DNA from: a virus
Lineage: Duplodnaviria > Caudoviricetes
Virus record (IMG/VR): IMGVR_UViG_3300007177_000042
Reading direction: 5' to 3' (one strand)
Length of the DNA stretch: 64,000 bases
Shown one piece after another: positions 1,689 to 5,069 of this stretch; within the stretch, counting starts at the first letter, position 1; each line of letters opens with the position of its first letter. The notes under the pieces are model-generated. The model was not told the origin of the DNA, ran no database searches, and saw only the letters and a program-made list of their open reading frames with translations. The position numbers and the translations under genes were made by a program.

Positions 1689-1766
1689 GGTGATATAGAC
1701 CAACTGGAAGGAGTCGTTACTTTGAGAGAGTAAATAGTGCAGGTTCGAATCCTGTTATCACCACCA
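1689..1766 (+). tRNA. trnL: tRNA-Leu(GAG), short variable loop
   Basis: GGTGATA/TATCACC acceptor, TTACT/AGTAA stem, loop TT-GAG-AG, 5-nt variable loop ATAGT, CCA. Confidence 0.85.
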
Positions 1767-2330: not shown

Positions 2331-2424
2331 GGATGGTAGACGAATAGTTAGTTAGTCGTATCTGTTTGCTAAACAGACGTGGCCTAAAAAACCACTGTGG
2401 GGGCAGCACCCACATCATCCGCCA
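2331..2424 (+). tRNA. trnS: tRNA-Ser(GCT), atypical D and T loops
   Basis: GGATGGT/ATCATCC acceptor, loop TT-GCT-AA, T loop GGCAGCA, CCA. Confidence 0.82.
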
Positions 2425-2430
2425 ATTTGT

Positions 2431-2517
2431 GGAACATAAACCGGACAGCCGTGCCGGAACTGATTCGAAATCAGATTGCACTATGTGTGTGGGGTTGAAG
2501 TCCTCTGTGTTCCGCCA
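2431..2517 (+). tRNA. trnS: tRNA-Ser(CGA), 8/4 fold
   Basis: 8-bp acceptor GGAACATA/TGTGTTCC, 4-bp T stem GGGG/CCTC, loop TT-CGA-AA, G73, CCA. Confidence 0.85.
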
Positions 2518-2519
2518 AT

Positions 2520-2607
2520 GGAGAGTAAACCAGTTAGGTACTGGGGTTGATTGGAAATCAGCACGCACCTTGAAAGGTGTGAGTTTCGAATACTCTGCTC
2601 TCCTCCA
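2520..2607 (+). tRNA. trnS: tRNA-Ser(GGA), 8/4 fold
   Basis: 8-bp acceptor GGAGAGTA/TGCTCTCC, 4-bp T stem GAGT/ACTC with loop TTCGAAT, loop TT-GGA-AA, CCA. Confidence 0.87.
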
Positions 2608-2623
2608 TTTAATAACACTCCAC

Positions 2624-2652
2624 TTGACATTGGAACCGAGAACTGATAGATT
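2624..2652 (+). promoter_or_regulatory. internal sigma70-like promoter in the tRNA array
   Basis: TTGACA-N17-TAGATT. Confidence 0.6.
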
Positions 2653-2696
2653 GATATCGTTCCTTGAAGAAATCGGAGATTGTCAAAAGATTTTAT

Positions 2697-2788
2697 GGTG
2701 AGGTGTCTGAGTGGTCTAAAGAGACAGTTTGCTAAACTGTTGTACGGTTAACCCCGTACCGAGGGTTCGAATCCCTCCCTCACCGCCA
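2697..2788 (+). tRNA. trnS: tRNA-Ser(GCT), canonical
   Basis: ACAGT/ACTGT stem, GCT anticodon, long variable arm, TTCGAAT T loop, CCA. Confidence 0.93.
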
Positions 2789-2793
2789 ATTTT

Positions 2794-2867
2794 GCGGGTA
2801 TAGCTCAATGGTAGAGTGTCAGTCTTCCAAACTGATTATGCGGGTTCAATTCCCGCTACCCGCTCCA
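2794..2867 (+). tRNA. trnG: tRNA-Gly(TCC)
   Basis: GCGGGTA/TACCCGC acceptor, loop CT-TCC-AA, U73, CCA. Confidence 0.93.
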
Positions 2868-2877
2868 AGTTTATGAC

Positions 2878-2951
2878 TGGGGATTTGCATAATGGTAGTG
2901 CAGGAGACTTTGGATCTCTTAGTGAAGGTTCGATTCCTTCATCCCCTGCCA
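2878..2951 (+). tRNA. trnQ: tRNA-Gln(TTG)
   Basis: Loop CT-TTG-GA, TTCGATT T loop, G73, CCA; U1-U72 mismatch. Confidence 0.88.
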
Positions 2952-2963
2952 ACATTTATATAT

Positions 2964-3061
2964 GTCAGTTAAGGGTCTAACTTTAGAGAAATTGTAACTA
3001 GTGATCATATGTTACAAAAGTAAATTCTAGTTGTCGAAAGGCACGTTGATCAAACACTGAC
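2964..3061 (+). ncRNA. orphan structured RNA C
   Basis: GTCAGT/ACTGAC closing stem, GGTC(T)AAC/GTTGATC, TGTAAC/GTTACA, TGTC-GAAA-GGCA GNRA hairpin. Confidence 0.55.
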
Positions 3062-3070
3062 TGAAATTTT

Positions 3071-3191
3071 GTTACGATAGATACATGGTAAACACAGTTA
3101 AGTGTTCGTGGAATCAAAATAATCGTCTAATAAATATAGGACGATAAATACCACCAAGATCGCATGTCGCTATAGCAAACTTTATCGTAAC
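3071..3191 (+). ncRNA. orphan structured RNA D
   Basis: GTTACGATA/TATCGTAAC closing stem, ACATG/CATGT, AACAC/GTGTT, GTGG/CCAC with inner TCGTC/GACGA. Confidence 0.6.
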
Positions 3192-3199
3192 GTTTTTAT

Positions 3200-3275
3200 C
3201 GGAGTGTAATGTCAAAAGTAGACGGCCTGTTTTGGAGACAGGAGGTTGAGATTGCGAAATTCTCCACTCCGACCA
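3200..3275 (+). tRNA. trnP: tRNA-Pro(TGG), atypical elbow
   Basis: CGGAGTG/CACTCCG acceptor, CCTGT/ACAGG stem, T loop TGCGAAA, no GG in D loop, CCA. Confidence 0.8.
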
Positions 3276-3325
3276 TTTTAATTTGTCTCGCCGAAAATAA
3301 CGGTTGCATATCTACCAAGTAAAAT

Positions 3326-3401
3326 CGGGCGTGAGGAAGATAGCTAATCCGCGCCGTTTGGGACGGCGAGACACCGGGAGCAATACCCGGACGCCCGACC
3401 A
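3326..3401 (+). tRNA. trnP: tRNA-Pro(TGG), atypical elbow
   Basis: CGGGCGT/ACGCCCG acceptor, CGCCG/CGGCG stem, T loop AGCAATA, CCA. Confidence 0.8.
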
Positions 3402-3406
3402 TTTAT

Positions 3407-3480
3407 TGGGGTTTAGTATAAAAGTATTATGGCTCGCTTTGAACGAGAGGACGGTGGAGCATTACCATCAACCCCAGCCA
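3407..3480 (+). tRNA. trnQ: tRNA-Gln(TTG), atypical elbow
   Basis: TGGGGTT/AACCCCA acceptor, loop CT-TTG-AA, T loop AGCATTA, CCA. Confidence 0.8.
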
Positions 3481-3490
3481 AATTAATAAT

Positions 3491-3594
3491 CAGCGTGTAG
3501 ACCAACATTAAAGAGTCAATTCCCACAAGGGAACAATGAGTGTGGCTTGAAAGAGATGTCTATGTGACAGGTGAAAATCCCACTACGCTGACCA
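3491..3594 (+). ncRNA. expanded tRNA-like RNA X1 (Leu-type scaffold, collapsed anticodon loop, 25-nt T-stem insertion)
   Basis: CAGCGTG/TACGCTG acceptor + ACCA; D arm TAGACC...GAGTC as in neighbouring Leu tRNAs; TTCCC-ACAA-GGGAA; GTGG[25 nt]G-TGAAAAT-CCCAC. Confidence 0.6.
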
Positions 3595-3636
3595 TTTATT
3601 TAAAATCAAAACTATTTATTGCGTAGGAGTTCAATT

Positions 3637-3861
3637 ATGAATATCAAAAACGCAATAAAAATGTTTGTAGTCACAAATTTATGTTTGTTGACATTAACCG
3701 CTGCCGGATTTCAAACGGAAAAATCAATTGAGACGTATAGAAAAAATTATACATCGTTGGTTTCTAAATGGAAGAAAGAAAAAAACGTTGAAAAGAAGAA
3801 AATTCTTCGTCAACAAATTGAACAGTTGAAAGAAAACAATGTTCATCTGTTCAAAAAGTAA
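3637..3861 (+). CDS. small Lys-rich hypothetical protein with hydrophobic N-terminus
   Basis: AGGAG RBS before ATG 3637 (track start 3619 is a non-ATG extension). Confidence 0.65.
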   Translation: MNIKNAIKMFVVTNLCLLTLTAAGFQTEKSIETYRKNYTSLVSKWKKEKNVEKKKILRQQIEQLKENNVHLFKK

Positions 3862-3866
3862 TTTAT

Positions 3867-3940
3867 TGGGGATTAGTATAAAAGCATTATAACTGACTCT
3901 GAATCAGAAGAAGGTGGAGCATTACCATCATCCCCAGCCA
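3867..3940 (+). tRNA. trnQ: tRNA-Gln(CTG), atypical elbow
   Basis: TGGGGAT/ATCCCCA acceptor, loop CT-CTG-AA, T loop AGCATTA, CCA. Confidence 0.82.
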
Positions 3941-4323: not shown

Positions 4324-4638
4324 TTTGACACAAGTGACTCTACGCTGGTGTAAATAACACTAGAGGAAGTTCGCTGCTGCACAGCAGATGATTGGGAGGA
4401 CATAAGTTAACTTCAAATTGCCCACAACGATTAAAAGATTGCAATTCCGTGGAAGCAAGGAGCAATCCGGTTAACCTCAGTCCGTTAAAACCACAAATTA
4501 GCAGTAATCCTAAATAACCCGAGTGTAGTGCTGCACGTTGAAGGGTGAGGTTGGAGCAGTTGTTTTTAACGAACAACCAGTAGTAATACTGAGAGAAATG
4601 TAGGGATAAAACAGAACAGCGGCTATGGCTGTGTCAAA
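4324..4638 (+). ncRNA. rnpB: RNase P RNA
   Basis: P1 TTTGACACA/TGTGTCAAA; P4 GAGGAAGTTCGCTG (4363-4376) pairs with ACAGAACAGCGGCTAT (4611-4626) with the bulged U; about 315 nt. Confidence 0.85.
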
Positions 4639-4644
4639 AATCTT

Positions 4645-4726
4645 GTGGTGGTTTGACCACGGCGTGAGGGACACGATACACCCCTGTATGTCTGACCCGG
4701 ACGAAACGACCCGTAAGGGTAGGGTT
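4645..4726 (+). promoter_or_regulatory. structured leader upstream of feoA (riboswitch-like candidate)
   Basis: Three hairpins; the last 3' strand AGGGTT lies 8 nt before the ATG. Confidence 0.45.
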
Positions 4727-4734
4727 GAATTTTG

Positions 4735-4944
4735 ATGAAAACATACAAGTTAACAGAGCTTAAAGCCGGAGAAAAAGGGCGAATTGTTGAAGTTAACATT
4801 GATAGTCAACGGTTAAAAGAACTTGGCATTATTCGTGGTGCAATTATAACCGTAGTTACAAACAATTTAATTTGTATGATTTGTAATACCCGAATTTGTT
4901 TGGGTAAACCGATGACAGACAATATCATCGTTGAAAAGATGTGA
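4735..4944 (+). CDS. feoA: FeoA-domain (SH3-like ferrous iron transport) protein
   Basis: LTELKAGEKGRIVEV...RLKELGIIRGAIITVV...RICLG...IIVE matches the FeoA pattern. Confidence 0.8.
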   Translation: MKTYKLTELKAGEKGRIVEVNIDSQRLKELGIIRGAIITVVTNNLICMICNTRICLGKPMTDNIIVEKM

Positions 4945-5069
4945 TCGTTGGTGTATAGAATTATAGCACGCTACACGTTGAGAGGGTAGAGGAGATCGAA
5001 GTTGACGGGTTAGACATTATCAGGAACGTTTCGTGAAATCCCCGTATATTCGCAAGTCACGGTCATCCA
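4942..5069 (+). ncRNA. expanded tRNA-like RNA X2
   Basis: Acceptor TGATCGT/ACGGTCA + TCCA; D arm GTGT/GCAC; CTAC/GTAG arm containing TTGAGAG; T arm replaced by a longer domain with ACGGG/CCCGT. Confidence 0.5.

Follow-up and report, generated by a model that had tools for sequence, protein, structure and literature searches.

The tRNA array of a phage genome contains an element that has the outline of a tRNA and presents no readable anticodon, which raises the question of whether such an RNA has a function and, if so, which one. The element, referred to as X1, is 104 nt long and is located at positions 3491-3594 (plus strand) of the window, the 64,000-nt stretch of DNA analyzed here. It was called neither by ARAGORN nor by Rfam. 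The record carrying X1 is that of a linear virus (111,698 bases, about 36% complete), a freshwater T4-like jumbo phage with a Gp23 major capsid protein and a T4-type terminase. A porin-like protein of the phage resembles a mostly Verrucomicrobiota cluster, which serves as a host lead only. Thirty-seven tRNAs were called in the record, together with a tmRNA and a GOLLD RNA (genome G000 70262-70724, minus strand, 212 bits) that has a tRNA-Thr embedded inside. A tRNA with a CUA anticodon (G000 71347-71422, minus strand), assigned to Pyl by ARAGORN, is a possible amber suppressor.

X1 begins 10 bases past a tRNA-Gln(UUG) gene (3407-3480, plus strand), which directly precedes it in all carriers, and is probably co-transcribed with the tRNA operon. 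The nearest good sigma-70-like promoter upstream is a candidate at 2624-2652 (plus strand, 10/12 with TG); sites of this kind were not enriched over shuffled sequences. The array holds further structured non-tRNA slots with closing stems and no Rfam match (2127-2220, 2964-3061, and 3071-3191). At about 4326-4650 (plus strand), the window contains an RNase P RNA-like gene that Rfam misses, with recognizable CR-I and CR-V sequences; it is conserved in at least 12 related loci, in some of them with a length-variable middle. An 80-nt noncoding element (4656-4735, plus strand) is located ahead of feoA and is 86-100% conserved in more than 20 related loci, with or without feoA after it.

The tRNA outline of X1 is complete at its acceptor end. 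The 5′ strand of the acceptor stem (C1 to G7, 3491-3497) pairs with 3584-3590 through six Watson-Crick pairs and one G-U pair, including C1-G72 and G3-C70, and is followed by the discriminator A73 and an encoded CCA (ACCA at 3591-3594). All seven pairs are formed in the four sequence variants described below, and both strands (3491-3497 and 3584-3594) are invariant. The equally invariant D arm (3500-3517; 3-bp stem, 12-nt loop) is of the type I tRNA-Leu kind according to the alignment with the nearest tRNA-Leu(UAA) and to the D-loop table of 92 type I Leu genes, and it corresponds to that of the Leu genes at 1689 and 1861. The anticodon arm (3520-3533) has a 5-bp stem, which is kept across one C-G to A-U change, and a loop of only 4 nt, ACAA, in the window copy. 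On these three arms, the preliminary description of the locus was accurate. The variable loop (3534-3541) is 8 nt long, compared to 5 nt in type I Leu genes, and ends in AGU (U48). The lower T stem (G49-G52, 3542-3545) pairs with 3580-3583, and G53-C61 closes a 7-nt T loop, U54 G55 A56 A57 A58 A59 U60 (3571-3579). Between T-stem positions 52 and 53, all variants carry an insert of 25 nt (3546-3570). Excision of the insert leaves a 5-bp T stem with a 7-nt loop, as had been described, but the loop of this perfect-looking arm reads UGAAAAU and not UUCRANY. GUGGG is the T stem in 67 of the 92 type I Leu genes of the fetched loci. Compared with the features of a decoding tRNA (RF00005), X1 has the acceptor, the discriminator, and the CCA, and it lacks the 7-nt anticodon loop with U33 and the uninterrupted T stem.

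The folding energy of X1 by itself is not significant (z −1.43), and the cloverleaf as drawn lies 5-8 kcal/mol above the predicted minimum. An RNAalifold consensus that pairs the D strand with the insert was rejected, as it had no both-sided change there and broken pairs. A combination of acceptor stem, NCCA, U8, and GAC closure with the length of X1 occurred once in the 111,698-base record and never in 10 shuffles, which is a rough control only because the descriptor was derived from X1 itself. We judge X1 to be real because it is conserved among orthologs, not because of its folding energy.

Orthologs were collected by pattern scans and from loci fetched via neighboring proteins. Four distinct sequences were obtained: that of the window, which is identical in L301 (5002-5105) and L397 (400-503), that of L396 (790-893), that of L022 (11657-11764) and L025, and that of L068 (1270-1373, minus strand) and L372. 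The insert has the same site and length in all four, and the acceptor end with its CCA is always kept. Variation is greatest in the anticodon loop (4, 4, 8, and 4 nt, free in sequence). Orthologs that are normal tRNAs, or stems that are not conserved, had been named beforehand as signs of a simple pseudogene; neither was seen in these orthologs, which is in agreement with the earlier suggestion of a non-decoding tRNA mimic. Only one of the 12 variable columns falls within the 55-nt acceptor/D/T core (hypergeometric P=0.001). The others are located in the anticodon arm, the first base of the variable loop, and the insert. Both-sided pair changes affect the last pair of the anticodon stem and the closing pair of insert hairpin 1; with only four distinct sequences available, this covariation alone does not reach significance (33/500 shuffles).

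The degree of conservation exceeds that of the neighborhood. X1 of L022 and of L068 is identical to the window copy at 99 and 93 of 104 positions (89-95%), whereas in the same two comparisons PhoH reaches 67% and 74%, the tmRNA 67-68%, and the best neighboring tRNAs 91% and 81%. The adjacent tRNA-Gln is only 64-65% identical. In L301, X1 is unchanged (104/104) next to a tRNA-Gln with nine changes; this tRNA-Gln (about 4918-4991 of L301) has a mismatched acceptor stem and is apparently decaying. Since distant relatives keep X1 better than their true tRNAs, it is probably a working tRNA mimic, and as the tRNA-Gln always precedes X1 and has nonetheless diverged to 64-65%, the linkage appears to be old rather than the result of a recent transfer.

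The distribution of X1 is patchy. In the close relatives L392-L395, the tRNA-Gln is followed directly by the next ORF, so that X1 is missing at exactly this junction, and a covariance model search found carriers in 2 of 42 related records. Beyond L022/L025 and L068, neither the viral pattern scans nor this search added carriers, for which reason the family is considered small in these collections. A metagenome pattern scan returned 107 chance matches and no ortholog, a scan of a genome collection returned one chance match, and the cultured phages contained no match for X1 or for X2, a second RNA of the window described below. The patchy occurrence, the empty site, and the modest z-score would all be compatible with a degenerate tRNA-Leu without a function of its own, kept or passed on by recombination within tRNA arrays. 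We consider this improbable: the changes avoid the core, the stems are kept, and X1 has changed less than functional tRNAs and the tmRNA, while its flanks and the upstream tRNA-Gln have diverged. As far as can be judged from sequence, the gene is accessory, and purifying selection acts on it in its carriers. The alignments demonstrate this selection for the acceptor/D/T half, and they likewise establish that a readable anticodon has been lost, that the insert is permanent, and that the gene can be present or absent after tRNA-Gln.

The origin of X1 can be traced to the short-variable-arm (type I) tRNA-Leu family of phages. Such genes, unusual for bacteria, are found in the window (1689-1766 and 1861-1938) and in the fetched loci L002-L117, with 92 distinct sequences that cover all six anticodons. 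The first tRNA set was enriched in Leu genes by the search pattern; the ancestry, as well as the elbow rule described below, was therefore rechecked on loci collected via a neighboring protein. In both the full and this sequence-unbiased set, X1 without its insert matched a type I tRNA-Leu(UAA) best, with a score of 69 versus 59 for the next tRNA in the unbiased set. When the covariance model of X1 was run on its own genome, the next-best matches were Leu genes, too. The comparisons thus show a derivation from this family at the sequence level. Relative to the nearest tRNA-Leu(UAA), the GG of the D loop and the UC of the T loop are changed, the anticodon loop is collapsed, the variable loop is longer, and the insert has been gained.

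With regard to charging, the LeuRS determinants A73, U8:A14, A15:U48, and U54:A58 (set taken from PMC6614811) are all present in the X1 sequence, and A73 is found in 83 of the 92 distinct short-variable-arm tRNA-Leu genes of the fetched loci. The anticodon arm is dispensable for leucylation (PMC9976931). The elbow pairs between G18/G19 and U55/C56 are needed by LeuRS in E. coli and dispensable for the type I tRNA-Leu of S. coelicolor, which tolerates the loss of G18G19 or U55C56; the length of the variable loop, in turn, matters for type I leucylation (PMC6614811), and the 8 nt of X1 instead of 5 nt count against the fit. Charging by other synthetases was considered. ProRS, suggested by C1-G72 and A73, was rejected, because G35/G36 of the anticodon are absent, and determinants for AlaRS (which needs G3-U70), SerRS, HisRS, and GlyRS are absent from X1 as well. 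LeuRS would thus be the only synthetase whose determinants fit, and charging of X1 with leucine is plausible.

A chargeable acceptor end, invariant and with Leu determinants, is what would be expected of a dedicated Leu-tRNA donor that is kept off the ribosome and serves a non-ribosomal aminoacyl transferase, be it in N-end tagging of the L/F-transferase kind or in the aminoacylation of peptidoglycan or lipids. Of the E. coli L/F-transferase determinants, X1 has G3:C70 and C68, but C72 and A4:U69 are replaced by G72 and C4-G69. A PF03588 gene was not detected in five partial records. Tight-binding EF-Tu pairs are not expected in donor tRNAs, and the three EF-Tu pairs of X1 are of tight-binding types. 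A role as an aminoacyl donor, as had been offered in the preliminary description, thus appears unlikely. The pairs in question (49-65, 50-64, and 51-63), known as T-stem contacts of EF-Tu (PMC3239215), are intact in X1. The insert begins one pair beyond them and may interfere with EF-Tu.

The elbow of X1, a point overlooked in the preliminary description, deviates from that of canonical tRNAs on both sides, with G18G19/U55C56 replaced by A18U19/G55A56. A3507-U3508 stand in the D loop where G18G19 would be, straight after CAAC, where the commonest Leu genes carry GG, and G55-A56 are found in the T loop. In the phage tRNAs, these positions change together. AG without GG in the D loop was found in 88 of 100 tRNAs with G55C56 and in 8 of 704 with U55C56, and the T loop UUAAAAU was accompanied by GU in 15 of 17 tRNAs and by GG in none, although neither set of counts is phylogenetically independent. 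In the sequence-unbiased set, 48 of 51 tRNAs with G55 had AG. Elbow recoding appears to be general among the phage tRNAs of the fetched loci and of the window (2331-3940); a further rule relates U56 to A19 (7/8). X1 follows both covariation rules. The UGAAAAU T loop is combined with a D-loop AU in L535 and L537 as well, which are unrelated tRNA-like genes. As a point against recoding, the L396 variant of X1, in which G55 is changed to U, has U55 together with A18. The 18/19 register in the A/U-rich loop was set by analogy, and on this basis the elbow of X1 looks recoded rather than lost, with A18 opposite G55 and U19 paired to A56. Recoding is the simplest account of the invariant D loop and the UGAAAAU T loop. 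A description of the A18/G55 rule or of the X1 RNA was not found in the searchable literature, which covers few subscription journals.

The insert was described beforehand as two mini-hairpins. The second one (3557-3569) is well supported, with pair probabilities of 0.88-0.99 in three variants and 0.45 in L068. The first one (3546-3555, capped by GAAA) is weak; its pair probability is 0.02-0.30, a single both-sided change (U-G to A-U) speaks for it, and the segment could alternatively form a strand resembling the first loop of a double T-loop. The constant length of exactly 25 nt, together with the T-arm geometry that excision restores, might indicate an intron whose removal yields a tRNA, either of the archaeal type or like the enigmatic tRNA introns of Lak-type phages (PMC6784885), which document that tRNA introns exist in phages. 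However, neither possible junction shows a bulge-helix-bulge (2/4 or 0/4 central pairs), the length is far below that of group I or II introns, and the spliced product would still have an anticodon loop of 4 or 8 nt instead of 7 nt. Among 64 loci that match the spliced T arm, none has the X1 D arm, so that an insert-less ortholog was not found, nor was an RtcB gene in the partial records. Because of the missing insert-less version and splice motif, X1 is not regarded as an intron-containing tRNA, and we give this part of the preliminary description very little credit.

A second explanation of the insert, likewise overlooked earlier, deserves more weight. The T-arm domain can be laid out as stem, 2 nt, (U/A)GAAA, 4 nt, helix, GG, UGAAA, 3 nt, and stem, with a helix between two pentaloops inside an internal loop and distances similar to those in RNase P. 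The (U/A)GAAA of the insert would then interlock with the UGAAA of the T loop in an interdigitated double T-loop, a clamp for tRNA elbows whose signature is AGNNA...UGNNA (PMC3664808), the tRNA body would be a chassis for processing and stability, and the RNA would dock on other tRNAs or on further copies of itself. RNase P comparisons were made on retrieved loci. An initial strict descriptor missed every RNase P control and was replaced by a relaxed one, which recovers four type B RNase P S-domains and picks up three of the X1 variants, compared to 8-14 matches (0.2-0.3%) among 5000 shuffles; on the other hand, the relaxation to allow U at the first position was made after X1 had been seen. 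The spacing is 2/4/2/3 nt in X1 versus 2/5/1/3 nt in RNase P B, and the predicted domain fold consists of a stem, an 11x10 internal loop, and a hairpin. Against the clamp, the canonical AGNNA is present only in L068, and the other three variants have UGAAA; two U-closed loops are said to clash. In L396, the core G of the second loop is changed to U (UUAAA). Moreover, compensation in the elbow explains UGAAAAU more simply and gives the invariant D loop a task. We regard the double T-loop as a minority possibility.

The same layout, with AGACA...UGAAA, occurs in X2 and in a module after GOLLD, and both are in favor of the clamp. X2 (4942-5069, plus strand) is a second RNA with a tRNA shell, of which 17 distinct versions were found, with homologs, for example, in L377 (1176-1302, minus strand), L231 (8322-8445), L245 (6345-6491), and L375 (8644-8796). 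It has a covarying acceptor stem, U73, and a variable anticodon loop; in its T-arm domain, an invariant AGA and GUGAAAUCC flank a variable insert of 2 to over 50 nt. The module AU-AGACA...GGAAC...GUGAAAUCC is located just after GOLLD (G000 about 70240-70210 and 72090-71990, minus strand) and elsewhere (L299:1411, L374:6465, L410, L433, L449, L491, and L492), in some cases inside tRNA shells. It gave more than 114 viral matches, many in unrelated phage RNAs, and represents a mobile RNA module, possibly forming a double T-loop. An assignment of the AGACA...GUGAAAUC module to the 3′ end of GOLLD was rejected, as about 20 nt separate the module from the upstream Rfam match. That X1 and X2 are tRNA bodies with a grafted double-T-loop clamp, acting as free-standing binders of the elbows of other tRNAs, is conceivable, but we would not expect it. 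If it were true, they would represent a new class of tRNA-binding RNA and, in addition to RNase P, T-boxes, and the L1 stalk, the fourth class that binds elbows. Such RNAs might, for example, protect tRNAs or withdraw them from use, or they might supply the slimmed RNase P-like RNA of the phage with a substrate clamp in trans.

Taken together, we slightly favor the view that X1 is a functional, non-decoding tRNA mimic from the short-arm tRNA-Leu family that binds a reader of the top half of tRNAs as a decoy or competitor. X1 would be cut from the transcript of the tRNA operon in the manner of a tRNA; we infer this release because the 7+5-bp acceptor-T stack and the encoded CCA are kept. It would then fold as an L, with the recoded elbow closed by A18 with G55 and U19 paired to A56, and the two hairpins of the insert would branch off sideways from the T stem between positions 52 and 53. 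Leucylation by LeuRS is probable because this enzyme needs no anticodon and is the only synthetase with fitting determinants. The short anticodon loop and the bulky branch would exclude X1 from decoding. Given a fixed acceptor end and elbow and a free anticodon, X1 is most simply seen as the ligand of a protein that recognizes tRNAs by their top half, for which it would act as a decoy or competitor; this protein may be a tRNA-targeting enzyme of host defense or surveillance, to which X1 would present no anticodon loop for cleavage. Such a role against a host enzyme would be the most likely one, and it fits the accessory distribution. A search of five partial records (31-51% complete) for genes of the partner candidates Ro60, RtcB, L/F-transferase, and CCA enzyme found none.

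What stable tRNA-like RNAs do in the tRNA clusters of phages, species 1 RNA of T4 and RNA2 of T5 among them, has been a question for decades. With 104 nt, X1 is small, and its conservation marks a fixed acceptor end, elbow, and T-stem junction as opposed to a free anticodon loop. Natural phages with and without the gene exist, so that charging, structure, and partner pull-down are directly approachable. As a natural example of an apparently doubly recoded elbow and of a branch tolerated within the T stem, X1 bears on how enzymes and defense systems read tRNA shape, and both features are relevant to the design of tRNA scaffolds.

Among the known systems, type I tRNA-Leu (tRNA-Leu(CAA) of S. coelicolor, PMC6614811; window 1689 and 1861) is the closest, sharing with X1 the D-arm frame, U8/A14/A15/U48, A73, a GUGG(G) T stem, AU at 59-60, and the encoded CCA. 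X1 differs from it by the missing 7-nt anticodon loop, A18U19/G55A56, the 8-nt variable loop, and the 25-nt T-stem insert. T4 species 1 RNA (rnaC, AF158101 70908-71046) and T5 RNA2 (AY543070 32959-33083; labeled in its record as "tRNA-like stable RNA with unknown functions") are, like X1, stable, tRNA-like, non-decoding, and encoded in or near phage tRNA clusters. However, neither has a sequence match to the X1 profile, and both contain a canonical uninterrupted T arm (UUCGAAU) with the extra domain 5′ of it. YrlA Y RNAs (RF02553, PMC4201824) are also tRNA-like, non-decoding, and present in phages, and they can be substrates of RNase P and the CCA enzyme. In contrast to them, X1 has a complete cloverleaf, both of its termini belong to the acceptor stem, and it has no Ro-binding stem; it did not match RF02553, and a Ro60 (TROVE) gene was found neither beside X1 nor in the same five partial records. 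The double-T-loop module of RNase P (J11/12-J12/11), T-box stem I, and the L1 stalk (PMC3664808, PMC4810234) resembles X1 in the succession of stem, 2 nt, pentaloop, short linker, helix, G, UGAAA, 3 nt, and stem, whereas the first loop of X1 is UGAAA in three of four variants, the core G is lost in one, and the linkers are offset by one nucleotide. On the basis of these comparisons of sequence and predicted structure, X1 is not a decoding tRNA, an intron-containing tRNA, a YrlA RNA, or a homolog of T4 rnaC or T5 RNA2. What is new in X1 is the combination of an insert in the T stem of a type I frame with an apparently doubly recoded elbow.
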